From: an uncultured Gammaproteobacteria bacterium
GTDB lineage: Bacteria; Pseudomonadota; Gammaproteobacteria; Steroidobacterales; Rariloculaceae
Assembly: GCA_963782445.1 (NCBI GenBank)
Contig: CAWAJM010000001.1
Span: 2,854,179 to 2,918,178 of the forward strand
DNA length: 64,000 bases
Direction of reading: 5' to 3'
Both the position numbers and the translations under genes were made by a program. Each line of letters begins with the position of its first letter. Positions within the stretch are counted from its first letter, which is position 1. The notes beneath the pieces were generated by a model. It saw only the letters and a program-made list of their open reading frames with translations. It made no database searches and was not told where the DNA came from. This document shows, piece by piece, positions 4,040 to 21,897 of this stretch.

Positions 4040-4109
4040 CTGTCTTTTCTCCCGTGAGTGGTTGTCAGACTGACCGGGAAGCACTCCGGCTTCCGCGGCC
4101 AGAGCGAAT

Positions 4110-4125: not shown

Positions 4126-4430
4126 CGCGCCGAACGCGAGCAATGACACGCGTTGCGCCTGCAACGACTCGATTCACGTCGTAATTGTGTTACCGCTGCC
4201 CGACAGTTCCGCGCCGCCGCAAACCGGCCGCGAGGCCAAGTTCAGATGGCGCGGGGCCGAACGTCGAAATCGAGCCTGCCGCCGATCGGCAACACCTGCC
4301 GCGAAAACGCCGGCAGCGAGCCTGCGCATGGAGGCGACGGCGCGAGGCCGCCGCTCGCAGAGGTCCAGCTACGGTGCGCATTTTCAATGTCTTAACAGGT
4401 ATACGTTCCTGCATCCGGTATGACTACGGC

Positions 4431-4446
4431 TGGCACGCGGTTTGCA
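4431..4446 (+). promoter_or_regulatory. Sigma54 (-24/-12) promoter for the EF-hand lipoprotein gene, and possibly the downstream kinase operon
   Basis: The plus strand reads TGGCACGCGGTTTGCA, a full match to TGGCACG-N4-TTGCW. ATG 4500 lies 54 nt downstream. An AT-rich IHF-like site, TTTCAATGTCTTA, sits at 4382..4394 just upstream. Confidence 0.7.
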
Positions 4447-4499
4447 GTCGTTGCAAATGCGAAATTGGGCTGCGCAAAACTTGCGGACGGGGACGATCG

Positions 4500-4733
4500 A
4501 TGTTGGGGAAGGCGGCGCTGTTCGGCTTGTCCGTGCTTTTGGGGGGCTGCTCCCGAGAGCCTGCCGCCTCGTTCGACCAGCTGGATCGAAACCATGATGG
4601 CCGCATTTCCCGGCAGGAAGCCGCAGCGGATCCGGGTCTGGTCCGGCAGTTCGCGAAGCTCGATGCGGACGGCGACGGCGAAGTGACACCCTTCGAGTAC
4701 CTGCAGTACCTACAGGCCGCCAACCGGCTCTAG
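4500..4733 (+). CDS. Small EF-hand calcium-binding lipoprotein
   Basis: Part of ORF 4185..4733. The start is ATG 4500. MLGKAALFGLSVLLGGC carries an LLGGC lipobox. It has two EF-hand loops, DRNHDGRISRQE and DADGDGEVTPFE. Confidence 0.7.
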   Translation: MLGKAALFGLSVLLGGCSREPAASFDQLDRNHDGRISRQEAAADPGLVRQFAKLDADGDGEVTPFEYLQYLQAANRL

Positions 4734-4896
4734 GAGCGCACACGGTCGGCGGCCGAACACGAGTTGGCTCGGAATGACGCGGTTTCTATCTCGAGCACCG
4801 GCGGTCGGAGACCTCCCCCGCCGGTTTTTTTATAGAATCTCCGGCACGTGCCGCGTGCCGCAGGTGTCCCTGCGCCGGCCCGTCTGGAGCGTCTTA

Positions 4897-6348: not shown

Positions 6349-6934
6349 GCCTTGGCTCGTGCTCGTCCTGACCTGCGCCGCCAGCGCCTGCCAGACGGCT
6401 CAACTTCCCGCCGCGGCGACGGCCGCTGCCGCCGCCGCCCCCGTGCCCTCCGACGACGTGCTGGCCGAGCTCTCGAGGTACGGCAATAAGGTGCGCGAGC
6501 TCGGCGGCAAGCAGCTCGAGCAGCAGTATCGGCAGCTCGCCCTCGCGAACGATTCGATGCTCTCGAGCGAGTCCGCGATCAAGCTGTCGCTGCTGCTGAG
6601 CGCCCCGAACTCGGCCTTTCAGGACATCGACCAGGCGACGCGCTTCCTGCGCAACGTCGTGTACCGGGAAGCCGGCCAGGAGCCCAAGATCGCCGAGTTT
6701 GCCCGCCTGCTCTACAATCTGCTGCGCGAGCGCGTCTACAGCGATTCCGACGGCGATGCCACGCTCGCTCTGCTCGCCAAGGAGCGCGACCGCAACGAGC
6801 AGCTGAACCGCCAGCTCACGAAGGTCAAAAGCGCCCTCGCGCTGGAGCGCAAGCAGCGCGAGACGCTCGAAGGCCAGCTCGATGCGCTGAAGAAACTCGA
6901 AGAGCAGCTCTCGCGCGAAGACCTGGGACAGTAA
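6317..6934 (+). CDS. Coiled-coil lipoprotein between kinase and regulator (QseG/YfhG-like position)
   Basis: ORF 6230..6934. The start is uncertain: TTG 6317 or ATG 6257, both overlapping the kinase 3' end. The signal-like segment is RRLKPWLVLVLTCAASAC. The C-terminal part is a heptad-rich coiled coil (ERDRNEQLNRQLTKVKSALALERKQRETLEGQLDALKKLEEQL). The call rests mainly on its position between a GlrK-like and a GlrR-like gene. Confidence 0.45.
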   Translation: MLGRSGSRRLKPWLVLVLTCAASACQTAQLPAAATAAAAAAPVPSDDVLAELSRYGNKVRELGGKQLEQQYRQLALANDSMLSSESAIKLSLLLSAPNSAFQDIDQATRFLRNVVYREAGQEPKIAEFARLLYNLLRERVYSDSDGDATLALLAKERDRNEQLNRQLTKVKSALALERKQRETLEGQLDALKKLEEQLSREDLGQ

Positions 6935-6943
6935 CACCGGCTT

Positions 6944-8332
<1,389 letters not shown>

Positions 8333-8399
8333 GCCGCGGCGCTTCAAATAGCCGCCGCGCTGGGTTCTAATACCCCGTCCGGGGAGGGGAGGACCCAGT

Positions 8400-10034
8400 A
8401 TGTGGCAGCAGCCTTATTTGCCGATAGCGAATAGCCTTGGGTGGTCGGCGCTTGCCGCCGCCGTGCCGATTCTCGTGCTGCTGCTGCTGATCGGTGTGCT
8501 GCGCCGGCCGGCCTGGGTCGCGGCGCTGGCGGGCCTCGCCACCGCGCTCGTCGTCGCGATCGGCGTCTACGGCATGCCGGTCAAGCTCGCCCTGAGCTCG
8601 ACGGCCATGGGCGCCGCCTTCGGCCTGTTTCCGATAGGCTGGATCGTCTACTGGGCCATCGTGCTGTACCGCCTCACGCTCGAGACGGGCAACTTCGAGA
8701 TCATCAAGGACTCGATAGGCGGGCTCACGTCCGACCGGCGGCTCCAGGCCATGCTCATCGCCTTCGCGCTCGGCGCCTTCATCGAGGGAGCCGCGGGCTT
8801 CGGCACCCCGGTCGCCGTGGCCGCGGCCATGCTCACGGGGCTCGGCTTCTCACCGTTCTTCGCGGCCGGCATCTGCCTGCTCGCCAACACGGCGCCCGTC
8901 GCGTTCGGCTCGATCGGCATCCCGGTCATTACGCTGGCCGGCACGACGGCCGGGCTGCACGGGGTCGCCGTGGGCCCGTGGACGGCGGAGCTCAGCAGCT
9001 GGGTCGGCCGGCTCTGCGCGCCCGTGTCTTTGTTCATACCGGCCTACCTCATGATGGTCATGGGCGGTTTCAAAGGCCTCAAGGCCGTGCTGCCCGCGGC
9101 CGCGGTCTGCGGGGTCGCGTTCGCGTCCGTGCAGTTCCTGATGTCGAACTTCGTGGGGCCGGAGCTCGTCGACATCGTGGCCTCGATCGTCGCGATCCTA
9201 GCGCTCATCGCGCTGCTCAAGGTCTGGCAGCCCGCCGAGGGCTTTCACATGGCCGGCGAGCATACCGCCGAGATCGAGCTCAAAACCCACGGCGTGGGCC
9301 GCACCGTGCTCGCCTGGTCGCCCTATCTGTTCCTCGTCGCATTCGTGCTCGTCTGGGGGACCTCGGGCGGCAAGCACGCGCTCGATGCGGTGACGGCCTC
9401 CGTGCGCTGGCCGGGCCTCGACAACCTCGTGCTGCGGGGCGCGCCCGTCGTCGCGACGCCGACGCCGTACGCGGCCAGTTACACGCTGAACTGGCTCTCG
9501 GCCGCGGGCACGGCCTGCGCCTTCGCGAGCATGGCGGCCGCGCTCGTGCTGCGCGTCTCGCTGGGACGCTATGTGCTCCTGCTCGGCTCCGTAGCCCGGC
9601 AGCTCGCGTTCCCGATGCTCACGATCGCCGCGGTCGTCGGCCTCGCCTATCTCATGAACTACTCGGGTGCGACGGTCACGCTCGGCCTCGCGTTCGCGGG
9701 CACGGGCGCGCTGTTTCCGTTCTTCAGCTCGTTGCTGGGGTGGCTCGGCGTGTTCCTGACCGGCAGCGATACGTCGTCGAACGCGCTGTTCGGCAACCTG
9801 CAGGTCGTGACGGCGACGAGCCTGCACCTCAATCCGGCGATCCTGGCCGCAGCGAACTCGGCCGGCGGCGTCATGGGCAAGATGATCAGCCTGCAGAGCC
9901 TCGCGGTCGCCGTCGCCGCCACGGGCATGAGCCGCAGCGAGGAAGGCAAGCTCTTCCGCTTCACATTCAAGCACAGCATCCTGCTCGCGGCCGTCGTCGG
10001 TGCGCTGACGGCGCTGTACGCCTACGCGATCTGA
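8400..10034 (+). CDS. lldP: L-lactate/glycolate permease (LctP family)
   Basis: ATG 8400 follows GGGGAGGGGAGG. The protein is 544 aa and polytopic. Family blocks include GLFPIGWIVYWAIVLYRLTLETGNFEIIKDSI, LIAFALGAFIEGAAGFGTPVAVAAAML, ANTAPVAFGSIGIPV and FLTGSDTSSNALFGNLQ. Confidence 0.85.
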   Translation: MWQQPYLPIANSLGWSALAAAVPILVLLLLIGVLRRPAWVAALAGLATALVVAIGVYGMPVKLALSSTAMGAAFGLFPIGWIVYWAIVLYRLTLETGNFEIIKDSIGGLTSDRRLQAMLIAFALGAFIEGAAGFGTPVAVAAAMLTGLGFSPFFAAGICLLANTAPVAFGSIGIPVITLAGTTAGLHGVAVGPWTAELSSWVGRLCAPVSLFIPAYLMMVMGGFKGLKAVLPAAAVCGVAFASVQFLMSNFVGPELVDIVASIVAILALIALLKVWQPAEGFHMAGEHTAEIELKTHGVGRTVLAWSPYLFLVAFVLVWGTSGGKHALDAVTASVRWPGLDNLVLRGAPVVATPTPYAASYTLNWLSAAGTACAFASMAAALVLRVSLGRYVLLLGSVARQLAFPMLTIAAVVGLAYLMNYSGATVTLGLAFAGTGALFPFFSSLLGWLGVFLTGSDTSSNALFGNLQVVTATSLHLNPAILAAANSAGGVMGKMISLQSLAVAVAATGMSRSEEGKLFRFTFKHSILLAAVVGALTALYAYAI

Positions 10035-10047
10035 CCGGCCTGCGCCC

Positions 10048-10947
10048 TCAGGTGGCGGAGCCGGGCACTTTGACGACGAGCACGTCGCCCGCGGCGTCGT
10101 GCAGCACACGGTCGGCCGTACTGCCGATGAACAGGCTCCGGATCGGGCCGCGCGGCACGGCACCGAGCACGAGCAGCGTGTGCGGCTCGCGCGCGCGCTC
10201 GCCGAGCACCTCGCCGGGGCGACCTTCGACGATGGTGCCCGCTGCTGCCGGCAGGCCCGCTTCGGTGACGAGCCGCGCGAATGCCTCGCGGCGCCCGGCC
10301 TCCAGCGAGCCCTGGACGTCGTCGACCATGACGGCATCGAGCCCGGAATCCGCGACGATCAGCGCAAGCGGCGTGAAGCAATGCACGACCTCGAGCCGTG
10401 CGGCACAGAGGTCCCGAAACAGCTTGGCCGCCGCGAGCACCGCGAGATCGAGCGAGGCGGGCTTGCCGTGCTCGCGCGCCGGGTCCACGCCCGCAACGAC
10501 CCGCTCGTAGGGCTCGCCGCCCCGGGCGCGCGCGACGAGCACGGGCACGGGACACGTAGCCACGAGCCGCCAGTCGTCGTGCGAGAACCGTCCCGCCGGC
10601 CCGCTCGGCTCCGTGACGACAAGCTCCGCGCGGCCACTGAGGGCCTCGCGGGCCGCGCCGTCTGCACGCGGATGGCTCCAGACCGCGCGCGCCTCGGCCC
10701 GCAGGCCGCGCTTGCGCAGGGCCGCGGCGATCGCCTCGGCGGCGCCCCGCCGTTCCTCGACGAGGCGGTCGCGCAGCGACGCATAGACCTCCGGATGGCC
10801 GAGATAGCCTTCGAGGTGCGGATCGTGAACCAGGGCCAGAACGTCGACGGCAGCGCCGGCGCGCTCGGCGATGGCTGCGGTACGCCGCACGGCGGCGGCA
10901 TCGGCGGTGGTGCCCCTCTCGGCGAGCAGCAGAAGCTTTTCGATCAT
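10048..10947 (-). CDS. Tandem universal stress protein (UspE-like, two Usp domains)
   Basis: ORF 10048..10992. The start is ATG 10947 (MIEKLLLL) or 10959. It has two Usp-like halves. The second ends with the typical LVLGAVPRGPIRSLFIGSTADRVLHDAAGDVLVVK. Confidence 0.7.
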   Translation of the reverse strand: MIEKLLLLAERGTTADAAAVRRTAAIAERAGAAVDVLALVHDPHLEGYLGHPEVYASLRDRLVEERRGAAEAIAAALRKRGLRAEARAVWSHPRADGAAREALSGRAELVVTEPSGPAGRFSHDDWRLVATCPVPVLVARARGGEPYERVVAGVDPAREHGKPASLDLAVLAAAKLFRDLCAARLEVVHCFTPLALIVADSGLDAVMVDDVQGSLEAGRREAFARLVTEAGLPAAAGTIVEGRPGEVLGERAREPHTLLVLGAVPRGPIRSLFIGSTADRVLHDAAGDVLVVKVPGSAT

Positions 10948-11042
10948 GCGGGCAAGCATAGAGGGCCCGGCCGCGCCGTCCCATCTCGGCATCTACGAAT
11001 CCGCGCGACGTCAAATGCCGGCATGGACGGTACACTCTGACA

Positions 11043-13718
11043 ATGCAACCTCTCTACCTTCGTACCCTCCAGGATCTCGTCGCATCTTTCGGCGCCCGCG
11101 GCGACAAGCAGGCCCTCGTCGCCTTCGGCGCGGATTCGAGCGAAACCTTGAGCTTCGACGCCTTGGGGGCCCGCATCGCGGACATCGCCGGCGGCCTGAC
11201 CGAGCGGGGCATCCGCCCGGGCGATCTCGTCCTGCTGTGCGGTCCCAACGGCCCCGGCTGGGCGGCGGCCTACTTCGGCATCGTGGCGGCCGGCGCGACG
11301 GCGGTGCCGGTCGACGATCAGTCCGGGCCCGAGACGCTGATCGGCGTGCTGCGCCACAGCGGCGCACGTTTCGCCTTCACGAGCCGCCGCCACCTCGACG
11401 CGCTCGGCGACGTACCCGAGAGACCTCAGGCTTTCGCCCTGCTCGAGGCGGGTGCCGAGGACCCGCTCGCGTACTCGCGCATCAAGGCCGACGGTCCGGT
11501 CGAGCTGCCCGCGCCCGACCCGGCCCGCATCGCCTCCCTTGTCTACACGTCCGGCACGACGGGCAACCCGAAGGCGGTACCGCTCACGCATGCGAACCTC
11601 GCCGCCGACGCCAACGCGCTCATGCGCGCCGGGCTCATCGGCGCCAGCGACCGCGTGCTGCTGCCGCTGCCGATGCATCACAGCTATCCGTTCACGGTCG
11701 GGCTGCTGCTCGTGCTCGGCATGGGCGCGACGCTCGTGCTGCCGTCCGGCATGTCGGGCCCCGAGATCACGGGGGCGCTCAAGGCCGGCGACGCGACCGC
11801 AATGCTCGGCGTGCCGAGCCTGTACGCGGCGGTCTGGCAAGGCATCACGACGCGCGTCGAGGCCGGCGGCGGAAGGCAGGCGCGGCTCTTTCGCCGGCTG
11901 CTCGCGGTGAGCCGCCGCACGACGCGCCTGACCGGGCTGCGCCCCGGCAAGCTGCTGTTCCGCCCGCTGCACGCCAACCTCGGCAAACGGCTCAGGATTC
12001 TCGGCTGCGGCGGCGCAAAGCTCGATCCGCAGCTCGCGCGGGATCTCGAGACGCTCGGCTGGACGGTGCTCTCCGGCTACGGCCTGACCGAGACCTCGCC
12101 CGTGCTCACGTTCAACTCGCGGCGCGGGCGCCGCCTCGATTCCGAAGGCCGCGCGCTGCCGGGCGTCGAGATTAGAATCGCGGAGGCGAGCGATCCGGCG
12201 CAAGGCGAGATCCTCGCACGGGGCCCGAACGTCTTCGCCGGCTACTGGAACAACCCCGACGCGACGCGCGAGGCGTTCACGGCCGACGGCTGGTTTCGCA
12301 CCGGCGACCTCGGCTGGCTCGACGCCGAGGGTTATCTGCACGTCGCCGGCCGGCTCAAGGAGGTTATCGTGCTCGCGGGCGGCAAGAACGTCTTCCCGGA
12401 GGACGTCGAGCCGACCTACGGAGCCTCGCCCCTGCTGCGCGAGATCGCGCTGCTCGAGCGCGAGGGCCGGCTCGTCGCGCTCGCGGTGCCGGACGAGGAC
12501 GAGCTGCGCCGGCGCGGCGGCCTCGGTGCCGTGCGCCTGATCGGCGACGAGCTCGAGCGGCTCGGCATGCAGCTGCCGCCGTACGAGCGCCTCATGGACT
12601 TCCGGGCCGTGCGCGAGCCGCTGCCGCGGACGCGCCTGGGCAAGCTGCGCCGGCACCTGCTGCTCGACCTCTACGAGCGCGCCGGGCAGCGCTCTCTCGA
12701 GGAACAGCCGGTCGATCTCAGCGCCGAAGACAAGCAGCTCGTCGAGGCCTCGCCGACGACGCAGGGCGTCTGGCAGTGGCTCGCCGAGCGCTATCCGGAC
12801 CGGCACCTCTATCTCGACATGAGCCCGCAGCTGGATCTGCAGATCGACTCGCTGGGTTGGGTCACGCTGACGCTCGAGCTCGAGCAGCGCTTCCGTGTCG
12901 CCCTCTCGGGCGCGGCTGTGAGCCGCGTGCTGACGCTGCGGGACCTTCTGACCGAAGTTCACCGCGCCGAGCAGAGCGGCGCCACGACGCCCGCCGCCGG
13001 CGGGCCGCGCCCGGCGCCGCCGCGGCCCGGGCCCGTGCTCGGGGCGCTCGGCGCGGGCCTCTTCGCTCTCGACCGCGCGCTCATGCGCACGCTGTTCAGC
13101 CTCTCGGTCACGGGCCAAGAGCGCGTGCCGAGCGAGGGCCCGCTCGTCTTCGCGCCTAACCACGAGAGCTTTCTGGATCCCGCGGCCATCGCGGCCGCAC
13201 TGCCGCCCGGGATGCTGCGGCGAGTGCATTGGGCCGGCTGGGTCGGCGTCATGTTCGCGGGCCCGGTCAGCCGCCTCGTGAGCCGCGCGACGGGCGTATT
13301 CCCCGTGGACCCGGACCAGGACCTCGCGGGAGCCATCGGCACCGCGCGCGCCGTGCTCGAGCAGGGCGACTCGCTCGTCTGGTTCCCCGAAGGCCGCCGC
13401 TCGCTCGACGGCCGGCTCCTGCCCTTCCGCCCGGGCATCGGCGCATTGCTCGAGCATCAGACCTGCCGCGTCGTGCCGACGTTCGTGCAGGGCAGCTTCG
13501 AGGCCTGGCCGCCGACGCGCAAGCTGCCTCGCCGCCATCCGGTCAGCATCGCCTTCGGGCCGAGCGCGTCGGTGGCCGAGCTTGCGGCGGAGGGGGAAGG
13601 CGATTCGGAGCCGGCGCGCATCCGCAGCGCGCTCGAGCGCCGCGTCCAGGCGCTGGCCGCGCAGTTCGGAGCCCCCCCGGAAAGTCCGGACTCGACTAAG
13701 CTCGGCCCCGCGCGGTAA
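11043..13718 (+). CDS. Tri-domain fusion: AMP-dependent fatty-acyl ligase, carrier (PP-binding) domain, and PlsC-type lysophospholipid acyltransferase
   Basis: The protein is 891 aa. AMP-binding motifs are LVYTSGTTGNPKAV, GYGLTETS, TGDLG and GGKNVFPEDVE. The carrier-domain Ser motif is LQIDSLGWVTLTLELEQRF. The acyltransferase H(X)4D motif is NHESFLD, with FPEGRRS downstream. Confidence 0.8.
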   Translation: MQPLYLRTLQDLVASFGARGDKQALVAFGADSSETLSFDALGARIADIAGGLTERGIRPGDLVLLCGPNGPGWAAAYFGIVAAGATAVPVDDQSGPETLIGVLRHSGARFAFTSRRHLDALGDVPERPQAFALLEAGAEDPLAYSRIKADGPVELPAPDPARIASLVYTSGTTGNPKAVPLTHANLAADANALMRAGLIGASDRVLLPLPMHHSYPFTVGLLLVLGMGATLVLPSGMSGPEITGALKAGDATAMLGVPSLYAAVWQGITTRVEAGGGRQARLFRRLLAVSRRTTRLTGLRPGKLLFRPLHANLGKRLRILGCGGAKLDPQLARDLETLGWTVLSGYGLTETSPVLTFNSRRGRRLDSEGRALPGVEIRIAEASDPAQGEILARGPNVFAGYWNNPDATREAFTADGWFRTGDLGWLDAEGYLHVAGRLKEVIVLAGGKNVFPEDVEPTYGASPLLREIALLEREGRLVALAVPDEDELRRRGGLGAVRLIGDELERLGMQLPPYERLMDFRAVREPLPRTRLGKLRRHLLLDLYERAGQRSLEEQPVDLSAEDKQLVEASPTTQGVWQWLAERYPDRHLYLDMSPQLDLQIDSLGWVTLTLELEQRFRVALSGAAVSRVLTLRDLLTEVHRAEQSGATTPAAGGPRPAPPRPGPVLGALGAGLFALDRALMRTLFSLSVTGQERVPSEGPLVFAPNHESFLDPAAIAAALPPGMLRRVHWAGWVGVMFAGPVSRLVSRATGVFPVDPDQDLAGAIGTARAVLEQGDSLVWFPEGRRSLDGRLLPFRPGIGALLEHQTCRVVPTFVQGSFEAWPPTRKLPRRHPVSIAFGPSASVAELAAEGEGDSEPARIRSALERRVQALAAQFGAPPESPDSTKLGPAR

Positions 13719-13729
13719 TTTGGCCCATT

Positions 13730-14170
13730 ATGGCTATCGTAAGAAATTGCCCGAACTGCGGGCGCCGCAACCGGATCCCCGAGGCGCACTTGTCGGACAC
13801 GGGACGCTGCGGCTCCTGCCGCGAGCCGCTGCCGCCCCTCGCGGCGCCGCTCGAGGTCGGCAGCCACGAATTTCGCGCCATCGTGGCCGCGGCCCGGGTC
13901 CCGATTCTCGTCGACTTTTGGGCCGCCTGGTGCGGCCCGTGCAAGATGGCGGCGCCCGAGGTCGCGCGCGTCGCGGAGGCGATGGCCGGGCGCGCGCTCG
14001 TGCTCAAGGTCGACACCGAGACGGCCCCGGACCTCGCGGCCGAGTACAACGTCCGCAGCATCCCGAACTTCGCTGTGTTCGCCAACGGCTCGCTCGTATT
14101 TCAGCAGGCCGGGCTCGTGAACCACAGCCGGATGCAGACGTGGCTCGAGCAGGCTGCGGCGGCCGCATGA
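13730..14170 (+). CDS. trxC: Thioredoxin 2 with N-terminal zinc-finger extension
   Basis: The N-terminus has CPNCGRRNRIP...CGSC (two CxxC pairs). The active site is WAAWCGPCK. The tail matches the thioredoxin fold (VDTETAPDLAAEYNVRSIPNFAVFANG). Confidence 0.85.
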   Translation: MAIVRNCPNCGRRNRIPEAHLSDTGRCGSCREPLPPLAAPLEVGSHEFRAIVAAARVPILVDFWAAWCGPCKMAAPEVARVAEAMAGRALVLKVDTETAPDLAAEYNVRSIPNFAVFANGSLVFQQAGLVNHSRMQTWLEQAAAAA

Positions 14171-14202
14171 AACGTGTTCACACTCGAGGAGCGTCAAGCG
14201 CC

Positions 14203-14610
14203 ATGAAATCGACTGCTGCCACCGCCACGATCGCCTTGCTGGTCCTCGCCGCCGGGAGCGCCGCGGCGGCCGAGAACGCCGCCTCCGGCTCACAGATCTA
14301 TGCCAACAACTGCGCCTCCTGCCACGGGCCGACGGGCGAAGGCAACGGCCCCGTCGCCGCCGTTCTCAACGTCAACGTGCCGAATCTGCGCAACCTCGCC
14401 GAGCGCAATCACGGCGTCTTCCCGACGGCCGATGTGCGCGCCTACATCGACGGCCGCAATCTGCCGGCCGCCCATGGCGACCGCTACATGCCGATCTGGG
14501 GCGCCGAGTTCGGCTGGGGCGGCAAAGGCAAAGCGGCCACCGAAAAGCTCATTGCAGAGCGCATCGACGCGGTCGTCGACTACCTCAAAAAGCTCCAGTA
14601 CCGGAAGTAA
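14203..14610 (+). CDS. Periplasmic monoheme class I cytochrome c
   Basis: This is the C-terminal part of artefactual ORF 13582..14610. The start is ATG 14203, or ATG 14167 overlapping the trxC stop. The signal peptide is MKSTAATATIALLVLAAGSAAAA. There is a single heme motif, CASCHG, and a distal M in YMPIWG. Confidence 0.7.
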   Translation: MKSTAATATIALLVLAAGSAAAAENAASGSQIYANNCASCHGPTGEGNGPVAAVLNVNVPNLRNLAERNHGVFPTADVRAYIDGRNLPAAHGDRYMPIWGAEFGWGGKGKAATEKLIAERIDAVVDYLKKLQYRK

Positions 14611-14621
14611 CCGAAGCCGAT

Positions 14622-15236
14622 TCAGATCTGGCGGATGCTGCCGACGATGCGCACGAGCTCGGCCAGCGAACGCACGCCCATCTTGTGCATGACGCGGGCG
14701 CGATGCAGTTCGACGGTGCGCTGGCTCACGCCGAGATCGAGCGCGATGACCTTGTTGGCATGGCCCTGCACGACCTTGTCCATGACCTCGGTCTCGCGCG
14801 GCGTCAGCGTCTTGAGGCGTTTGCGCGCCCGCGCGACCGACTCGTCCTCGTTGCGGCGCTCGCGGTCCGCCTGCAGCGCCTTGTGGATGCGGTCCAGCAG
14901 GTCCTGATCGCGAAAGGGCTTCTGAATGAAATCCGCGGCGCCGGCCTGCATGGCGGTGACGGCCATCGGCACGTCGCCGTGCCCGGTGACGAAGATGATC
15001 GGAATCTCCGCCTGCCGTGAGTTGAGCTCTTCCTGCAGCTCGAGACCGCTCAGGCCCGGCATGCGAATGTCGGCGACGAGGCAGCTCACGCGCGACGGCT
15101 CGTAGCCCTCGAGAAACGCATTGCCCGAAGAATACGTCTCGCACGGCAGCCCCACCGATTTCAGCAGCAACCGCAACGAATCGCGCACGGCGTCGTCGTC
15201 GTCGACGACGTAAACGACCGAAGACTCTTCACTCAC
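14622..15236 (-). CDS. fixJ: FixJ-type response regulator (REC + LuxR/NarL HTH)
   Basis: VVYVVDDDDAVRDSL...ADIRMPGLSGLELQEEL...IIFVTGHGDVPMAVTAMQAGAADFIQKPF is followed by LTPRETEVMDKVVQGHANKVIALDLGVSQRTVELHRARVMHKMG. It lies 4 nt downstream of the fixL-like gene. Confidence 0.8.
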   Translation of the reverse strand: MSEESSVVYVVDDDDAVRDSLRLLLKSVGLPCETYSSGNAFLEGYEPSRVSCLVADIRMPGLSGLELQEELNSRQAEIPIIFVTGHGDVPMAVTAMQAGAADFIQKPFRDQDLLDRIHKALQADRERRNEDESVARARKRLKTLTPRETEVMDKVVQGHANKVIALDLGVSQRTVELHRARVMHKMGVRSLAELVRIVGSIRQI

Positions 15237-15239
15237 GCT

Positions 15240-16382
15240 TCACTCCCCAGAATAGCCCGGCAATGAGACCGAGAACTCGGCCCCGCCCTGCGGGAGGCTC
15301 TCGTAGGAGAGCGTCCCGCCGTGAGCCTGCACGATCGTCTGGCTGACCGCCAGTCCCACGCCGAGCCCTTCCGGCTTGCTCGTCACGAAGGGGTGGAAGA
15401 TCGAGGCGCCGAGCCGGGCGTCGACGCCGGGCCCCAAGTCCGCGACCGCGATGCAAAGACCGCCGGCGCCGTCGGCCCGCGTCTCGATGCGCAGTACGCG
15501 CCCGGCCGAACCGACGTCCTGCATCGCTTCGACGGCATTACGCGTGAGGTTCAGCACGACCTGCTGCAACTGCATGGCATTGCCGTGGACCCGCGGCAGG
15601 CCCTCGGCCAGGTCGAGCTCGATGGCGACGCCGCCGGCCCGCGCATCGGCCTCGACGAGCCCGAGGACGTCGCGGATCACGCGATTCACGTCGAGCGCTT
15701 CGAGCTCAGCCTCGTGCTTGCGCACGAAGCTGCGCAGATTCTCGATGACCTGGCTCGCACGCCGCGCCTGCTCGGCGATCGCGCCGCAGGCTTGACTCAA
15801 CGAGGCCAGATCGGGCTCGGTCCCGGCCACGAGCCGCTTCGCGGCCTGCGCATAAGTCGCGATCGCGCTCAGCGGCTGGTTGATCTCGTGGGCAATGCCG
15901 GCGGCCATCTCGCCCATGAGGCTGAACCGGCCGACGTGCGCCAACTGCGCCTCGAGCAGCCGGCGCTCGCGCTCGGCGGCGCGCATCTCGGAGAGATCCC
16001 GGACGATGCCGACGAAGCTCCGGCCGGCGGAGCCGACCGCCTCGCCTATCGAGAGCCAAATGGGCACCCGCTCGCCCGACTTGCGCAGGGCCTCGACCTC
16101 GCGGCCGATGCCGATGACGCGGGCCTCGCCTTCGCACAGATACCTTTTGACATAATCATCGTGCAGCGAGGCATGCGGCTCCGGCATCAGGCGCGCGACG
16201 GGCGTGCCGACGACCTCTTCGGCGCGGTAGCCGAACAGCTGCTCGGCCGCGGGATTGAACGACGTGACGCGGCCGCGCTCGTCGATCGTGATGATGGCGT
16301 CGACGGCCGCGGCCAGCAGCGCATCGAGCTCCGCGCCTCGGTTCGCCTGGGCCGACGTTTCCGTCTCGTGCGTTTCTACCAT
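15240..16382 (-). CDS. fixL: Soluble heme-PAS oxygen-sensor histidine kinase (FixL-like)
   Basis: The PAS block AIITIDERGRVTSFNPAAEQLFGYRAEEVVGTPVARLMPEPHASLHDDYVKRYLCEGEARVIGIGREVEALRKSGERVPIWLSIGEA is collinear with the Bradyrhizobium FixL heme pocket as I recall it (MPEP..RHDSYISRY...IIGIGR...HLSIGE). The kinase core has GEMAAGIAHEINQPL, LTRNAVEAM, DLGPGV and GLGVGLAV. No TM segment is present. Confidence 0.8.
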   Translation of the reverse strand: MVETHETETSAQANRGAELDALLAAAVDAIITIDERGRVTSFNPAAEQLFGYRAEEVVGTPVARLMPEPHASLHDDYVKRYLCEGEARVIGIGREVEALRKSGERVPIWLSIGEAVGSAGRSFVGIVRDLSEMRAAERERRLLEAQLAHVGRFSLMGEMAAGIAHEINQPLSAIATYAQAAKRLVAGTEPDLASLSQACGAIAEQARRASQVIENLRSFVRKHEAELEALDVNRVIRDVLGLVEADARAGGVAIELDLAEGLPRVHGNAMQLQQVVLNLTRNAVEAMQDVGSAGRVLRIETRADGAGGLCIAVADLGPGVDARLGASIFHPFVTSKPEGLGVGLAVSQTIVQAHGGTLSYESLPQGGAEFSVSLPGYSGE

Positions 16383-16484
16383 GGATGGATTCCGACTCAG
16401 CGCGGCCGTCGGCTCACGCCCCTGGCCGCCGCACTATAAACTTGGGCGCAGATTGCAGGCAAAGCGCCCGGGGAGGTATCCGCA

Positions 16485-17417
16485 ATGACCGAAGGGGACC
16501 GTATTCTCGTCGTCGTCGATCCGACGGCCGATGCGCAGCCCGCGTTCGAGCGCGGCCTGTGGCTCGCGGAGCGGCTCGGCGCCGCCCTCGAGCTTTTCAT
16601 CTGCGACTACGACGCCCATCTGGCGGGCAAACGCTTCTACGATGCCGATTCGCTGGGCCGCGCGCGAGAGACCCGGCTCGAGGCGGACGGCGCCCGGCTC
16701 GCCGCGCTGGCCGCCCAAGCCGAGGCACGCGGCGTGCCTGCTTCCGTGGACGTGCAATGGGACCACCCGCTGCATGCGGGCATCGTGAGAAAGACGGCAG
16801 CAACTCGGCCTGCCTTCGTCCTCAAGGACACGCATTACCACGAGCTCATCCGCCGCTCGATCTTCTCCAACACCGACTGGCAATTGATCCGCGAATGCCC
16901 GGCCCCGCTTTGGCTCGTCAAGCCCCACGAGCCGGCTACCCGCCCCGTGTTCCTCGCGGCCGTCGATCCGCTGCACGAGCGCGACAAACCGGCTGATCTC
17001 GATCGTGAGATCGTCGCCCTCGCACGGCGGCTCGGCGACGCGCTCGGCGGCCGGCTCGAGCTGTTTCACGCGTTCGATCCGACGCCGGCCTTCGCGGCCT
17101 CCGGCGATGCGAACGGAATCGCACTCGCGGCCCCGGATGGCGTCCTCGACGAGCTGCGCGTCATGCACGCCGAGGCCGTGCGCGCGCTGGCCGCGGCGCA
17201 CGGCGTGCCGGACGCGCGCGTCCACGTGCTCGACGGCGGGACACGCGAGCTGCTCGTCGACCTCGTCGGCCGTCTTGCGGCCGACTGCGTCGTCATGGGC
17301 GCCGTCTCGCGCAACGCGCTGCAGCGGCTCTTTCTCGGCAGCACGGCCGAAGAAGTGCTCGATCGGCTGCCTTGCGACGTGCTCGTCGTCAAGCCGCCGT
17401 CGGTGCCGCGGACATAG
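16485..17417 (+). CDS. Tandem universal stress protein (UspE-like)
   Basis: The protein is 310 aa with two Usp halves. It opens with ILVVVDPTADAQPAFERGLWLAERLGAALELFICDY and ends with VVMGAVSRNALQRLFLGSTAEEVLDRLPCDVLVVK. Confidence 0.75.
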   Translation: MTEGDRILVVVDPTADAQPAFERGLWLAERLGAALELFICDYDAHLAGKRFYDADSLGRARETRLEADGARLAALAAQAEARGVPASVDVQWDHPLHAGIVRKTAATRPAFVLKDTHYHELIRRSIFSNTDWQLIRECPAPLWLVKPHEPATRPVFLAAVDPLHERDKPADLDREIVALARRLGDALGGRLELFHAFDPTPAFAASGDANGIALAAPDGVLDELRVMHAEAVRALAAAHGVPDARVHVLDGGTRELLVDLVGRLAADCVVMGAVSRNALQRLFLGSTAEEVLDRLPCDVLVVKPPSVPRT

Positions 17418-17427
17418 TCCGGGCGAA

Positions 17428-17448
17428 CCGGAAGCACAGCGCTTCCGG
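17428..17448. terminator. Hairpin between convergent usp and hsp20 genes (possible bidirectional terminator)
   Basis: CCGGAAGC-acagc-GCTTCCGG forms a perfect 8-bp stem. No clear U-tract follows on either strand. Confidence 0.35.
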
Positions 17449-17471
17449 CTGCCCGTCGCTGCGCATCGCGC

Positions 17472-17891
17472 TCAGCCGATGTCGACTTGGACGCGGCGAG
17501 GCTGCTTCGCTTCGCTCTTCGGCAGATGGACCCTCAAGACGCCGTCCTTTGAATCGGCGCTGATCTTCGTCTGATCCACGTCCTCCGGCAGCGCGAAACT
17601 GCGGGCGAAGCGGCCATAGAACGCCTCGCGACGATGCTCCTTCTCGTTGTCCGTGGACTTCTCGACGCGGCGCTCGCCGCTCAGCGTCAGCACACCGTTC
17701 TCGACGCTGATGTCGATGTCCTCTTTCTTGACCTCCGGAAGGTCGGCCTTGATCAGGTATTCCTTGTCGTTTTCGACGATGTCGGCGGACGGCCGCCACT
17801 GCATGTTGTCCCCCGCCGGGCTCATATCGCGCGCATAGCGCGAGAACAGCTGGTCCAGCTCACGAAAGGGGCTCCAGGTAATCAGGTTCAT
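17472..17891 (-). CDS. Small heat shock protein, Hsp20/alpha-crystallin family
   Basis: Part of ORF 17472..17957. The start is ATG 17891 after GGAGGA. It reads PSADIVENDKEYLIKADLPEVKKEDIDISVENGVLTLSGERR...FYGRFARSFALPEDVD..KISADSKDGVLRVHLPK. Confidence 0.85.
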   Translation of the reverse strand: MNLITWSPFRELDQLFSRYARDMSPAGDNMQWRPSADIVENDKEYLIKADLPEVKKEDIDISVENGVLTLSGERRVEKSTDNEKEHRREAFYGRFARSFALPEDVDQTKISADSKDGVLRVHLPKSEAKQPRRVQVDIG

Positions 17892-17930
17892 GATCTGTCC
17901 TCCTGCAATTGGGACTGCGAGACAACGACT

Positions 17931-17958
17931 ACATTGAGACGGCAGCTCGTTTTTCAAG
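17931..17958 (-). promoter_or_regulatory. Sigma32-like heat-shock promoter upstream of hsp20
   Basis: The minus strand reads CTTGAAA-N13-CTCAATGTA, against the consensus CTTGAAA-N13-17-CCCCATNTA. The -10 ends about 40 nt upstream of ATG 17891. Confidence 0.4.
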
Positions 17959-17964
17959 GCCGCC

Positions 17965-18756
17965 TCACCCGGGGACGACTACGATGTCGGCGTCTACGGC
18001 ATCGACGATGCGTTCCGCCGTAGCGCCGATGATGCGCGCGCGGTCATCGAGCCCTTCCGGCGCGCAGCCGACGACGAGCACGCCGACGCCGAGCCGCACG
18101 GCGACCTCGGCGATGGCGCGAGGGACCGGACCGGCCGCGACGTGCGTACGCTCATGCGGCAGACTGCAGCGCTCCGCGAGCGCCTGTCGATCGTCGGACG
18201 CGGCCGGGCCCTCGGTGACCGTCACAGCATGCAGCTCGGCGCCGAGCGCGTCCGCGATGCCGCGCGCCGCGGCAATCACGGCCGCATCGGGCTCGCCGGC
18301 GGCCGTGCGCGCGCCCAGCTTGACGGCCGCGAGCACGACGTTGGGCGCTTGCGGCGCGTTCGGACTCACTAACAGCGTCGGGCAGCCCATGCTCCCGAGC
18401 AACGTGAAGTCCGTCGTCTTCATTAGATGCCGCGCGAGCGCAGTCTGGCGATTCGCCGTCTTGACGACGAGCTGGCTGCCCGATGCAATGGCCGCGCGCG
18501 CCATCGCGTCCCGCCATTCCGGGTCCCAGCCGACCTCGATCGAGGCCCGTGTGCCGCGCCCGCGCGTGCCCGCCGCGAGCCGCTCGAGCCACGAGCGCGT
18601 CCGTTCCACGTTAGCGATCTTCGCGTGCTGATCGAAAGCGAGCCGGCTGTCGTAGCAGCAGCAGTACAACAGCAGCTCGGCGGCGCTGCGCTCGGCGATC
18701 CACTCGGCCCTCTCGAGCGCAGGCTGCACGAGCCTCGTCGGATCCAGCACGGCCAT
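17965..18756 (-). CDS. Tandem universal stress protein (third paralog)
   Basis: ORF 17965..18861. The likely start is ATG 18756 (MAVLDPTR...). It has a two-domain Usp layout. The C-terminus VLVVGCAPEGLDDRARIIGATAERIVDAVDADIVVV resembles the other two paralogs. Confidence 0.65.
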   Translation of the reverse strand: MAVLDPTRLVQPALERAEWIAERSAAELLLYCCCYDSRLAFDQHAKIANVERTRSWLERLAAGTRGRGTRASIEVGWDPEWRDAMARAAIASGSQLVVKTANRQTALARHLMKTTDFTLLGSMGCPTLLVSPNAPQAPNVVLAAVKLGARTAAGEPDAAVIAAARGIADALGAELHAVTVTEGPAASDDRQALAERCSLPHERTHVAAGPVPRAIAEVAVRLGVGVLVVGCAPEGLDDRARIIGATAERIVDAVDADIVVVPG

Positions 18757-18947
18757 GACCTTGGCGATAGGAATCGGCACCTTCGTCAACCCAGGGTTTC
18801 CCGCCTCGCAGTGGCGCAAAGGATGCGGCGCGGCGCCAATCCCGAGAATAAGTAGATGCACGTAGCGATGGCGGCAAATGCGGATTGCCGCAAACGCCGC
18901 TCTCGCCCATCATGGGCAGGTCGAGAAAAAGAACCAAAGGGCCGCTC

Positions 18948-19397
18948 ATGTCAGTCGACAAAATCTGCAATCACAACGTCGTCACCACGGAGGCCGACGC
19001 CGGGCTCGTCGAGACGGCCCTGCGCATGCGCGAAGAGCACGTCGGCAACGTCGTCGTAACCGAATACCGCAATGGCCGGCAGACGCCCGTCGGCATCCTT
19101 ACGGATCGCGACATCCTCGTCGAGGTCGTCGCCGCCAAGGTCGATGCGAGCGCCCTGACGGTCGGCGCCGTCATGACGCGGGACCTGACCGTCGTCGCAA
19201 AAGACAACGGCGTAGATTTCGCGCTCAAAGCCATGATGCGGGCCGGCGTGCGCCGCGTCCCGGTCGTGGACCGCGACGGCTCCCTGGTCGGCATCCTCAG
19301 CGTCGACGACGTGCTCGCACACATGAGCGAGCAGCTGTCGCACCTGGCCGAGGCGCTGCGCGGCGAGCAGCGGCGGGAGGCCAAGCAGCGGCCGTAG
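18948..19397 (+). CDS. CBS-pair domain protein
   Basis: Part of ORF 18885..19397. The start is ATG 18948. It has two CBS motifs (VVTTEADAGLVETALRMREEHVGNVVV...VGILTDRDI and VMTRDLTVVAKDNGVDFALKAMMRAGVRRVPVVDRDGSLVGILSVDDV). Confidence 0.75.
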   Translation: MSVDKICNHNVVTTEADAGLVETALRMREEHVGNVVVTEYRNGRQTPVGILTDRDILVEVVAAKVDASALTVGAVMTRDLTVVAKDNGVDFALKAMMRAGVRRVPVVDRDGSLVGILSVDDVLAHMSEQLSHLAEALRGEQRREAKQRP

Positions 19398-19571
19398 GCG
19401 GCGCGTGCGGGTAGCCCGCATGATTCACGAACGGGCTTGGCGCGGGGGGGTTGTCGGAGGCTCGTGCTGCCACGGCGCGAGGAGATTGGCGGGGCGAAGA
19501 CCGTAACCCTGGCGGCTGCAGCAGACCCCGGCCCGGGCGCTCTTCGGCGGCTATAGCCAGCCCGGTATCCA

Positions 19572-19743: not shown

Positions 19744-21033
19744 CTACCCCGCCGCCGAGAAGTCCACCGTAGCCGCCGTCCCCTCACCGGGCCGGCTGTC
19801 GATCGTGAGCCGCCAGCCGAAGCGCTCGCAGATGCGCTTCGCGAGGTGCAGCCCCATGCCGCCGCTGGGCTTCGTGCTGTAGCGGCGATCGAACAGCGAA
19901 CCGAGTGCCTCCGCCGGTATGCCGCAGCCCGTGTCCGTCACGGACAGCCGCGAGCCTTGCGTTTCGACGCGGATGCCGCCCGCGCGCGTGTGCTCGATCG
20001 CGTTGCGCAGCAGATTGCCGACGACGATGGCCGGCAGGGCCGGCGGCACATCGAGCCGCAAATCGGTCCCGCCCCGGTATTCGAGCGCCACGGCGGCGGC
20101 GTCCACGAGCGGACGGTAGCTCTCGGTCAGCTCGCGCGCGACGCGGTCCAGCTCGCAGCCGGCCGGCTCGCCGTCGTCGGCGCGGGTCTCGCGCGACAGG
20201 AACAGCAGCGCCTCGCTGTACTCGCGCATCTCGCGCTGGGCACGCGCGATGCGCTCGGCGGCGCGCCGGGCGCCCGGCGGCAGATTCGGCTGCTCGAGCA
20301 GCACTTCGGTCGCGCCCTGCATGACCGCGAGCGGTGTCCTGAGCTCGTGCGCCGCGGCCGCCGTGAACAGCTGCTCGCGCTCGACGAAGCCATCCAGCCT
20401 TTCCATATAGCGGTCGAAGGCCTCGGCGATGGGCGTGACCTCGTCGCCGACGAAATCGGGCGCGATGCGCACGTTGCGCTGGCGCGGGTCGAGCTTCTTG
20501 AGCCGCGCCGCGAGCGACGTCACGGGCGCGACGAGCTCGCCGGAGGCCCAGAACCCGATCCACACGGCCAGCAGCGCACTCAGCACGACGCCGCCGACCA
20601 GCACGTAGATGACGGGTTGCTCGAGCGCCTCCCACTCCGTGATGTCGTAGCCGACGTAGAGCCTGCGGCCGTGCGCGTCGCCGACATAGACCTGATAGGC
20701 CTTGTCGCCGACGCGGACGGCGTGGTGGACACCGGGTGCGAGCGCCGCGAAAGCGCTTGGCAGCGCCGGGTTCTGACGACCGACGAAGCCCAGCAGCAGC
20801 GCGCTCTTGACGGAGTCGAGCGCCGGGTGCGTCTCGAGATTCGCGGCCAGCGTCTGAAACTCGGCGCGGATGTGCCGATTCAGCACGCTGCGCTCCATGC
20901 GCTCGGCACCGATGAAGACGCCGAAAGCGAATACCGCCGTGCTCAGCGCGCCGAGCAGCAGCATCGCGAGCGTGATGCGCGCGCGCAGGCTGGCGAAGCG
21001 GCGTTTCGGCTCAGCGCTCATCGATGTCGGCAA
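19744..21033 (-). CDS. Membrane sensor histidine kinase, partner of the adjacent OmpR-type regulator (metal-efflux associated)
   Basis: The start is ATG 21033, or 21021 overlapping the regulator stop. It has two TM segments (ITLAMLLLGALSTAVFAFGVFIG and VIYVLVGGVVLSALLAVWIGFWA). The H-box is FTAAAAHELRTPLAVM, with LLRNAIEHT, DTGCGIP and GGMGLHLA downstream. Confidence 0.75.
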   Translation of the reverse strand: MPTSMSAEPKRRFASLRARITLAMLLLGALSTAVFAFGVFIGAERMERSVLNRHIRAEFQTLAANLETHPALDSVKSALLLGFVGRQNPALPSAFAALAPGVHHAVRVGDKAYQVYVGDAHGRRLYVGYDITEWEALEQPVIYVLVGGVVLSALLAVWIGFWASGELVAPVTSLAARLKKLDPRQRNVRIAPDFVGDEVTPIAEAFDRYMERLDGFVEREQLFTAAAAHELRTPLAVMQGATEVLLEQPNLPPGARRAAERIARAQREMREYSEALLFLSRETRADDGEPAGCELDRVARELTESYRPLVDAAAVALEYRGGTDLRLDVPPALPAIVVGNLLRNAIEHTRAGGIRVETQGSRLSVTDTGCGIPAEALGSLFDRRYSTKPSGGMGLHLAKRICERFGWRLTIDSRPGEGTAATVDFSAAG

Positions 21034-21697
21034 GCCGATAACCCACGCCGTGCACGGTGTGCAGAAGCTTGCGTTCGAAGGGTTTGTCGATGGCGGAGCG
21101 CAACGAGTAGATGTGCGCCCTGAGCACGTCGCCCCCGGGGGGATCGTCGCCCCAGAGCGCCTCCTCGAGCTCGCGGCGCGCGACGACGCGGTGACTGTTC
21201 GCCATGAGGACGCCGAGCAGCCGGCGCATGCTCGGGTTCAGCTCGAGCTTACGCCCGGCGCGGCGCACGGTCTCGGTCGCCTGCTCGTATTCGAGGTCCG
21301 CGACGCGCAGCGTGCGGCCGCCGATGACCCGGCCGGCCCCGCGCCGGTGCAGCGCTTCGAGGCGAGCCTCGAGCTCCTTGAGCGCGAAGGGCTTCACGAG
21401 GTAGTCGTCGGCGCCCGCGCCGAAGCCGCCGACCTTGTCCTCGAGGCGGTCGCGCGCCGTGAGCATGAGGACCGGCGTCTCCTTTTGCCCCTCCCGCCGC
21501 AGCTTGCGGCAGACCTCGACACCGTCCATGCCGGGCAGCATGAGGTCCAGCACGACAACGTCGTAATCGTGGGTCAGGGCGAGGTGCAGGCCCGTTACGC
21601 CGTCGCCGGCATAGTCGAGCACGTGCCCGCGCGGCTCGAGGTAATCCCCGATGTTCTCGGCAATGTCGCGATGGTCTTCGATGACGAGCACTCGCAT
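21011..21697 (-). CDS. OmpR/PhoB-family response regulator
   Basis: Part of ORF 21011..21910. The start is ATG 21697. MRVLVIEDHRDIAENI...VVLDLMLPGMDGVEVCRKLR...VLMLTARD...GADDYLVKPF is followed by a winged helix (LHTVHGVGYRL). It is divergent from the czc-like operon. Confidence 0.85.
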   Translation of the reverse strand: MRVLVIEDHRDIAENIGDYLEPRGHVLDYAGDGVTGLHLALTHDYDVVVLDLMLPGMDGVEVCRKLRREGQKETPVLMLTARDRLEDKVGGFGAGADDYLVKPFALKELEARLEALHRRGAGRVIGGRTLRVADLEYEQATETVRRAGRKLELNPSMRRLLGVLMANSHRVVARRELEEALWGDDPPGGDVLRAHIYSLRSAIDKPFERKLLHTVHGVGYRLADIDER

Positions 21698-21897
21698 GGG
21701 GCCGGATTCTAAGGGAACCGCGTGAAAAAAAAGTCGCTGCACGTATCTTCCGCAATGCCACGAAAGTATGAGTTTTCCACGACATATTTTTAACGTCGTT
21801 CGCGGCATCGTCTCGCCACGTTTCGGCGCAGGGCGCCGCTCAGCTGGGAGGCCGTTATGCCACCGATCAGAACGACGACGAGCCGGGCTCCACGGCG

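Follow-up and report, generated by a model that had tools for sequence, protein, structure and literature searches.

The FixL/FixJ two-component system is the textbook oxygen sensor, with direct targets that are poorly defined outside fixK and nifA and with a binding motif that is disputed. For S. meliloti FixJ, systematic evolution of ligands by exponential enrichment (SELEX) yielded two classes of motif, GTAGTTTCCC and GTAMGTAG, and the site at fixK is TAAGTAATTTCCCTTA (quoted in PMC4999443). The locus called lxa (for low-oxygen-activated) of Burkholderia cenocepacia belongs to an aerobe and is proposed to help it survive when oxygen is absent. It comprises 50 genes, among them ones for CRP/Anr regulators, and has 17 sites with an Anr/FNR-type TGA-N6-TCA motif (PMC3721108). 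A parallel between FixLJ/Lxa and the mycobacterial DosRS system has already been drawn in a review (PMC12071387). In this study, we analysed a 64-kb window (the whole stretch of DNA examined, from contig CAWAJM010000001.1 of an uncultured gammaproteobacterium with a 4.4-Mb genome), in which a fixL-fixJ pair is surrounded by genes for three tandem universal stress proteins (USP1 to USP3) and other stress-related proteins. We propose, with a probability of roughly 0.55, that this is a chromosomal FixLJ-controlled low-oxygen/stress cluster in which phosphorylated FixJ (FixJ~P) would have direct targets in, at a minimum, the USP3/CBS and USP1/fusion-operon promoter regions, a wiring like that of DosR. 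All regulation described here is deduced from the DNA sequence.

The G+C content of the window is ~69% throughout, and real genes were told from many spurious open reading frames (ORFs) by their third-position G+C. Using Pfam and NCBIfam profile searches together with ORF calls, we confirmed every gene listed in a first-pass annotation of this DNA, at or very near the coordinates given there. The cluster consists of the following genes:

8400-10034, + strand: lactate permease LctP (L-lactate permease; Pfam Lactate_perm, E = 5e-154)
10048-10947, - strand: USP1, tandem UspE-type universal stress protein (Pfam Usp, two stretches)
11043-13718, + strand: fusion of a fatty-acyl-AMP ligase, a carrier-domain-like segment and a PlsC-type acyltransferase (Pfam AMP-binding and Acyltransferase)
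13730-14170, + strand: thioredoxin 2 (trx2), TrxC type with N-terminal Zn ribbon (Pfam Thioredoxin and Zn_ribbon_Thio2)
14203-14610, + strand: small periplasmic class I cytochrome c (signal peptide, single CASCH, downstream Met)
14622-15236, - strand: FixJ-type response regulator, REC and GerE/LuxR helix-turn-helix (Pfam)
15240-16382, - strand: FixL-type haem histidine kinase of 380 aa, soluble and with a single PAS domain (Pfam PAS, HisKA and HATPase_c)
16485-17417, + strand: USP2, tandem UspE-type universal stress protein (Pfam Usp, E = 7e-32)
17472-17891, - strand: Hsp20/alpha-crystallin small heat-shock protein (Pfam HSP20, E = 3e-26)
17965-18756, - strand: USP3, tandem universal stress protein with a more diverged second domain (Pfam Usp)
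18948-19397, + strand: stand-alone CBS-pair protein (Pfam CBS, two stretches)

Unlike rhizobial FixL, the 380-residue FixL of the window has a single PAS domain, with neither a membrane segment nor a second PAS domain, and fixJ starts 3 nt downstream of its gene. Its PAS domain aligns without gaps with the FixL haem domains crystallised from S. meliloti and B. japonicum (PDB 1d06 and 1dp6; 43-44% identity, E about 1e-25). His74, Arg80, Arg94, and Ile112 fall column for column on His200, Arg206, Arg220, and Ile238 of B. japonicum FixL (BjFixL), and the position of BjFixL I215 is taken by V89. The pocket motifs LHDDYVKRY, IGIGR, and LSIGE, which the first-pass annotation had listed for its soluble haem-PAS FixL-like kinase, are present, and H74, R94, and G113-E114 are invariant in 17 homologues. 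FixL haem-PAS domains have a proximal His along with Arg and Ile residues in contact with the haem propionate and O2; in BjFixL structures, Arg220, the counterpart of Arg94, makes the O2 contact. The kinase core, with HisKA H-box and HATPase_c domains found by Pfam, is of FixL type, and its best PDB matches are the chimeric sensors 8a7f and 4gcz, which carry the BjFixL kinase core (E = 1e-51). As judged from these alignments, FixL is a kinase of the cytoplasm whose one PAS domain is of haem type and conserves the pocket residues that serve in haem ligation and in O2 binding. Homologues of this protein (364-411 aa) number in the thousands; almost all are from uncultured soil or sediment bacteria, and the named ones are from metagenome-assembled genomes (MAGs) of Gammaproteobacteria. 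An exact look-up gave no record identical to the window's protein, and among the matches listed in a scan of a genome collection with the full-length FixL alignment, only L004-L006 were close.

The regulator has the REC and GerE/LuxR architecture expected of FixJ, and its phospho-acceptor set, D56, T84, and K106, can be read from the translation. FixJ and TtrR are its best NCBIfam models, with the FixJ equivalog NF006900 by far the best-scoring. The top full-length PDB match is StyR (1yio), and BjFixJ (5xso) is matched with E = 8e-49. The DNA-binding domain finds its best PDB match in S. meliloti FixJ-C (1x3u, E = 3e-14), and the recognition helix is near-identical to that of the latter (SQRTVELHRARVMHKM here vs SPRTVEVHRANVMAKM in 1x3u). 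This helix, together with the location of the gene beside fixL, bears out the FixJ-like assignment made at first pass. Thus the two proteins appear to be FixL-type and FixJ-type proteins of shorter architecture, which share with the rhizobial pair the same haem-pocket residues and almost the same DNA-recognition helix.

The neighbourhood of fixLJ is conserved in relatives. In L001 (81% identity) the whole cluster and both flanks are collinear with the window, and relatives at ~58% identity keep a core consisting of a USP gene divergent from fixL-fixJ and a convergent cytochrome c gene, often followed by trx2, the fusion gene, and a divergent USP gene. The divergent USP gene adjoins fixL in all 11 clade loci with upstream sequence, and most relatives also have a cytochrome c orthologue convergent to fixJ, as seen in L001, L002, L003, L086, L087, L088, L092, and L094. 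Several relatives also hold the fusion of AMP-ligase, acyl carrier protein (ACP), and acyltransferase, along with a second USP gene. Both the collinearity in L001 and the recurrence of the core at ~58% identity indicate that the cluster is not a chance assembly, and the clustering around fixLJ noted at first pass proves to be conserved, with cytochrome bd oxidase, alanine dehydrogenase, and more USPs added in relatives. The accessory genes vary among relatives and include those for Hsp20, CBS proteins, cytochrome bd oxidase (cydAB), alanine dehydrogenase, FMN reductase, P-type ATPase, GNAT proteins, and further USPs; several of them fit a low-oxygen role.

Haem-PAS sensors bind several gases, and the mycobacterial sensors DosS and DosT respond to nitric oxide, carbon monoxide, and redox state. 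The FixL described here might thus report one of these signals in place of O2, which would make the cluster a nitrosative or redox stress module and not a hypoxia module. Thioredoxin 2 and cytochrome c would suit a redox theme, and NnrU is encoded in the cluster of one relative. Nevertheless, we consider this very unlikely, given the conservation of Arg94, IGIGR, and LSIGE and the presence of the high-affinity cytochrome bd oxidase in relatives.

Sequences resembling FixJ-binding sites recur at defined positions in the clusters of relatives. At the fixL/USP junction of 12 loci there is a box, CATACGTAGTTTCCG when read toward the divergent USP gene, which holds both SELEX classes and resembles the S. 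meliloti fixK site. In L002, L003, L084, L088, L090, and others this box embeds the fixL start codon (e.g. L003 9989-10003). FixJ bound there could activate the divergent USP gene and also influence how fixL is expressed. Some 9 nt from the box there is another conserved block, CTAGGGACAT. Upstream of the fusion gene of relatives, exact GTAMGTAG is found in the divergent spacer, often paired with a second copy 10 bp off; on the other side of this spacer, L003, L087, and L094 have a USP gene and L002 has a run of Na/Ca-exchanger, ATPase, and USP genes. All three GTAMGTAG copies of L002 fall in intergenic regions of the cluster. FixJ-like boxes also precede other cluster genes, namely those for cytochrome c and USP in L002, and L086 has them in two spacers, cytochrome c/FMN-reductase and trx2/USP. 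The density of GTAMGTAG in the clade loci is ~6 times that in the other 2 Mb of comparison DNA, although the latter has a lower G+C.

Matrices of 10, 11, and 14 nt were trained solely on the boxes of relatives and then run across the 64-kb window. The sites found with them, along with the promoter-like elements of the cluster, are as follows:

10987-11000, - strand: FixJ-box-like site ATTCGTAGATGCCG in the USP1/fusion divergent region; best 14-nt matrix match in the window, 13.6 bits
16381-16394, + strand: degenerate FixJ-box remnant ATGGATGGATTCCG, at the position of CATACGTAGTTTCCG in relatives
16433-16462, - strand: sigma-70-like fixLJ promoter TTGCCT-N18-TATAGT, the sole sigma-70-type match in 8300-19500
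17930-17959, - strand: sigma-32-type promoter CTTGAAA-N13-CTCAATGT upstream of hsp20, conserved in L001
18849-18885, + strand: composite FixJ-box-like element between USP3 and CBS, made up of TAAGTAGATGCACGTAG (18849-18865) and an inverted partner, CGGCAAATGCGGAT (18872-18885)

The USP1/fusion site has the orthologous sequence GTTCGTACATGCCG in L001. In the USP3/CBS spacer, the top window match of both the 10- and 11-nt matrices is ATAAGTAGAT at 18848. The block 18841-18890 containing the composite element is identical to L001 at 49 of 50 positions in a spacer that has otherwise diverged, with GTACAT in place of GTAGAT in the L001 versions of both boxes. The pattern.AMGTAG-N3-[TCA]AMGTAG occurs four times in the 2.27 Mb searched, and three of these occurrences lie in intergenic regions of fixLJ clusters. 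When 1000 column-permuted matrices were run, the top match fell in a cluster intergenic region for 2.2% of them, and at least two of the top ten matches did so for 1.2%. The first-pass annotation had suggested that FixJ may act directly on the promoters of the cluster and had named four intergenic regions for binding tests. This proposal gains ground for 10948-11042, which holds ATTCGTAGATGCCG, and for 18757-18947, which holds TAAGTAGATGCACGTAG with its inverted partner; these sites resemble the SELEX motifs, and exact copies of those motifs stand at the equivalent promoters of relatives. It loses ground for 16383-16484, where the site is degenerate here despite its strong conservation in relatives, and for 17892-17964, where a sigma-32-type promoter and no FixJ-like box is found upstream of hsp20. 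Neither the fixL/USP2 promoters nor the hsp20 promoter of the window gave a convincing match to the FixJ matrix.

In the USP1/fusion spacer, a -10-like TATGCT (10955-10960, - strand) ends 7 nt before the ATG of USP1 and a -10-like TACACT (11031-11036, + strand) ends 6 nt before that of the fusion gene, in both cases with no Shine-Dalgarno sequence. The two transcripts may therefore be leaderless and arranged back to back, in which case the FixJ-like box would centre near -46 and -50 of the putative USP1 and fusion starts, respectively. A perfect 10-bp palindrome, ATGCCGGCAT (11015-11024), is situated between the box and the -10 of the fusion gene. In the fixL/USP2 region, the TATA block is kept in all relatives; read on the + strand, the same A+T block gives TATAAA (16435-16440), the likely -10 of USP2.

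In the mechanism that we envisage, release of O2 from the haem would lead FixL to autophosphorylate on the H-box residue His165 and to pass the phosphate to Asp56 of FixJ. FixJ~P would then dimerise, bind to TA(A/C)GTAG-type boxes in the two back-to-back promoter regions, and, without FixK as a go-between, turn on USP3 and/or CBS together with the fusion-trx2-cytochrome c operon and/or USP1. The fixLJ genes themselves would be transcribed from the sigma-70-like promoter. Since relatives have a strong box at the divergent USP2 and the window a weak one, this gene was probably the ancestral direct target of FixJ. Transcription of hsp20 would depend mainly on sigma-32 and that of lctP on a promoter of its own, both being neighbours and not established members of the regulon. 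From what is known of these families, the tandem USPs and the CBS protein would likely restrain growth and energy use, thiols and periplasmic electron transfer would be maintained, and the ligase-ACP-acyltransferase fusion would re-acylate lysophospholipids with free fatty acids.

Several observations weigh against this proposal. Both proteins score under the NCBIfam equivalog cut-offs, FixJ narrowly, at 245.5 bits vs 255 (NF006900), and FixL at 304.5 bits vs 850 (NF041777); the protein has no counterpart to the N-terminal half of the rhizobial FixL model, so that the match spans only model positions 119-480 and the score lies far under the cut-off. The boxes in the window match GTAMGTAG at 6-7 of 8 positions, none of them exactly, and the permutation p-values are only ~0.01-0.02. 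The degenerate pattern ATWMGTAGWT was composed after the sites had been seen, so that statistics based on it are inflated. At fixL/USP2, the window and L001 retain only the TTCCG tail of the box. Furthermore, hsp20 is preceded by a sigma-32-type promoter rather than a FixJ box, the fusion gene is found without fixLJ in other genomes, and a Crp-family gene lies inside the cluster of one relative, L087.

The last of these bears on the classical arrangement, in which FixLJ would activate an unlinked fixK/anr-type gene elsewhere in the genome, and the product of this gene would induce the cluster. Such wiring is known in rhizobia, Caulobacter, and Burkholderia (PMC4999443, PMC12071387). The presence of a Crp-family gene in the L087 cluster means that a FixK could exist elsewhere in the genome of the window, of which just 64 kb out of 4.4 Mb is in view. 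However, no Crp/FNR-family gene was found among the genes of the 64-kb window by Pfam or by tblastn, and no TTGAT-N4-ATCAA box was found in 8400-19397 with up to 2 mismatches or in the loci of nine relatives with up to 1 mismatch. The first-pass annotation had likewise seen no FixK/FNR gene and no such box in the intergenic regions. FixJ-type boxes are found instead in promoter regions of the cluster. A FixK-mediated cascade is thus distinctly unlikely in our view, and direct action of FixJ~P remains the preferred explanation.

Alternatively, the cluster may be a set of independently regulated general-stress genes brought together by happenstance, with FixLJ controlling at most itself and one adjacent USP gene. 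This view is partly true for hsp20 and lctP. Hsp20 looks like an ordinary heat-shock gene, because the only match in the whole window, on both strands, to CTTGAA-N12-16-CNCNATNT, the consensus of E. coli sigma-32 promoters, precedes it and is conserved in L001. The lctP gene has its own sigma-70-like promoter, TTCAAA-N17-TCTAAT, also conserved in L001, and neither matrix nor pattern searches found a FixJ-like box upstream of it; adjacency is the only link of the lactate permease to the regulon in which it had been placed at first pass. The tie of the fusion enzyme to fixLJ is weakened as well. In other genomes its gene sits far from any fixLJ, alone in housekeeping contexts in L169 and L170, and together with the genes for cytochrome c, Hsp20, and LctP in L168. 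Because the fusion gene occurs without fixLJ too, the cluster is a mosaic built on a stable USP-fixLJ core, and its accessory content differs widely between relatives. As an account of the whole cluster, however, independent regulation seems unlikely, since the USP/fixLJ/cytochrome c core is kept down to ~58% identity and FixJ-like boxes lie before several cluster genes in relatives (L002 and L086) and in two promoter regions of the window. Direct control by FixJ, at least at these two promoter regions, is therefore the explanation that we favour.

The three USPs, described at first pass as two-domain paralogues, are indeed mutually homologous over their full length at 25-33% identity (USP3 vs USP2, E = 4e-29). 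The tandem NCBIfam model UspE is the best for all three of them (163 bits, 75 bits for USP1, and 71 bits for USP3, vs a cut-off of 227). USP2 matches UspE in PDB (4r2j and 5cb0) with E about 1e-38. A regular-expression search for the canonical USP ATP motif, G-2x-G-9x-G(S/T), found no match in any of the three proteins. The fusion protein contains AMP-binding (residues 19-402) and Acyltransferase (688-814) domains by Pfam, with intact-looking motifs for adenylation (YTSGTTGNPK, 168), for a carrier-type serine (IDSL, 601), and for PlsC acyl transfer (HESFLD, 707, and FPEG, 781). Faint matches to a PP-binding domain were seen in its homologues, of which there are thousands. Like E. coli Aas, it combines an adenylate-forming fatty-acid activating domain and a PlsC-type acyltransferase in one protein, and it has a sub-threshold match to the NCBIfam model of acyl-[ACP]--phospholipid O-acyltransferase. 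Unlike Aas, it has the reversed order, with the ligase first, and a built-in carrier-like IDSL segment between the domains; its activity is predicted only.

Among the described systems, the M. tuberculosis DosS/DosT-DosR system offers a similar wiring: a haem sensor and a LuxR/NarL-type regulator that acts, putatively in the window, directly upstream of tandem USPs and a CBS-pair protein (cf. Rv2626c), with an alpha-crystallin gene nearby and no intermediate regulator. The parallel with DosR drawn at first pass thus stands for wiring and cargo but not for the components, since the sensor has a PAS rather than a GAF haem domain, and the regulator, with FixJ and TtrR as its best models, is of FixJ type and not a DosR orthologue. 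The box is also different, of TA(A/C)GTAG type here vs the DosR palindrome (which was not searched for in the window), and Hsp20 here looks sigma-32-driven. The resemblance to the lxa locus, likewise suggested at first pass, holds for gene content, namely dense USPs with a small heat-shock protein, cytochromes, and a cation ATPase (the latter in relatives of the window), but does not extend to regulation. Whereas lxa is driven by Anr/FNR motifs with CRP/Anr regulators (PMC3721108), the window cluster of ~11 genes has no FNR-type boxes and no Crp gene, and has a fixLJ operon at its centre. USP2 also matches P. aeruginosa PA1789 (3mt0, E = 7e-21), one of the tandem USPs tied to anaerobic energy stress; these are regulated by the FNR-type Anr (as cited in PMC3721108) and not by a two-component system. 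As compared to the rhizobial FixLJ-FixK systems, the candidate boxes match the S. meliloti SELEX motifs, whereas there is no fixK gene in the window and no FixK box in its cluster or those of its relatives, and FixJ would here act on genes for USPs, the CBS protein, and lipid metabolism rather than on fixK or nifA.

All the component families of this cluster are already known, and the link between hypoxia and USPs is established. What appears to be new is the compact single-PAS FixL, the conserved company it keeps with tandem USPs, the fusion enzyme, and a small cytochrome c, and the sequence evidence for a FixJ regulon that is direct and free of FixK. It is tempting to speculate, albeit at somewhat less than even odds, that this minimal soluble FixL and FixJ serve a large clade of uncultured proteobacteria from soil and sediment as a DosR-like master switch, which would bind TACGTAG-type boxes directly at the genes for USPs, CBS proteins, cytochrome c, and lipid re-acylation, with no FixK tier. 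If so, this switch would represent a one-step hypoxic-persistence regulon evolved independently from FixLJ parts. The occurrence of a compact FixLJ beside probable targets in many uncultured soil bacteria would provide a natural FixK-free system for defining the FixJ box and the direct hypoxia regulon, and the cluster joins oxygen sensing both to tandem USPs and to a ligase-ACP-acyltransferase fusion that is uncharacterised. With ordinary components and a hypoxia-USP theme that is well known, the advance would be incremental rather than conceptual.

With regard to gene calls, the USP1 start at 10947 is backed by alignment with L001, and the hsp20 ATG at 17889-17891 gives a protein of 139 aa, equal to the L001 orthologue. 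An alternative start of the cytochrome c gene at 14167 overlaps the trx2 stop codon. The ORF at 14300-14692 (+ strand) was rejected as spurious on account of its low-complexity translation and lack of any family match, cytochrome c being the real gene in a different frame. Thioredoxin 2 scores 110 bits vs a cut-off of 125 for NCBIfam TrxC. The CBS protein, with orthologues in L001 and L084, matches M. tuberculosis Rv2626c (1y5h) over its full length with E = 1e-8, among many CBS proteins. Rfam and tRNA scans revealed no riboswitch, known small RNA, tRNA gene, or integration hallmark. A horizontally acquired island is unsupported: the typical G+C, the lack of tRNA genes, and the collinear flanks in L001 together argue against recent acquisition.

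Upstream of the cluster are a histidine kinase gene (4774-6348) and a sigma-54 response regulator gene (6944-8332). Matches to the sigma-54 promoter TGGCAC-N5-TTGCW, two perfect and one with a single mismatch, lie just upstream of them at 2812-2827 (- strand), 4110-4125 (- strand), and 4431-4446 (+ strand), and none was found inside the cluster. Because sigma-54 promoters occur outside the cluster only, the kinase and regulator probably constitute a separate NtrC-type system for solute-binding protein and FG-GAP genes, not for the FixLJ cluster. Between the two genes there is an ORF of 234 codons (6230-6934, + strand) with coding-type G+C and no Pfam or NCBIfam match. Genes without Pfam matches occupy the same position beside the sigma-54 regulator in L001 (189 aa) and L168, their likeness to 6230-6934 being positional only. 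In L168, positions 1-12000 hold a sigma-54 regulator, LctP, a beta-CASP/RMMBL RNase, the fusion enzyme, cytochrome c, and Hsp20 together, with no fixLJ and no USP. This region looks like a FixLJ-less version of the cluster neighbourhood, and a metal-dependent RNase is listed in the lxa locus too.

Farther downstream, the closest named homologues of an IMP dehydrogenase (39355-41211, + strand) are proteins of Planctomycetota MAGs (80-85% identity), followed by those of Spirochaetota (~67%), in contrast to the homologues of FixL and the fusion protein, the named ones of which are from Gammaproteobacteria. This pattern could reflect either horizontal acquisition or mis-binned reference MAGs. IMP dehydrogenase is a misleading guide to the taxonomy of the organism, which is probably gammaproteobacterial. 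The longest ORF of this gene includes an N-terminal extension of ~130 codons. Two tannase/feruloyl-esterase paralogues and a glucuronyl-esterase-like gene (27970-29571, 53853-55502, and 55175-57100) point to plant-polymer degradation; the ORF start at 55175 overlaps the preceding gene and was probably called too far upstream. Beyond the CBS gene, 19744-27760 encodes an OmpR-type two-component system and then a CzcB/HlyD-like protein, an RND pump, and DUF3240, a metal-efflux-type module that flanks the cluster in L001 too. In place of this module, L002, L003, and L087 have a set of Pyr_redox_2, OEP, MFP, and RND genes beside fixLJ.

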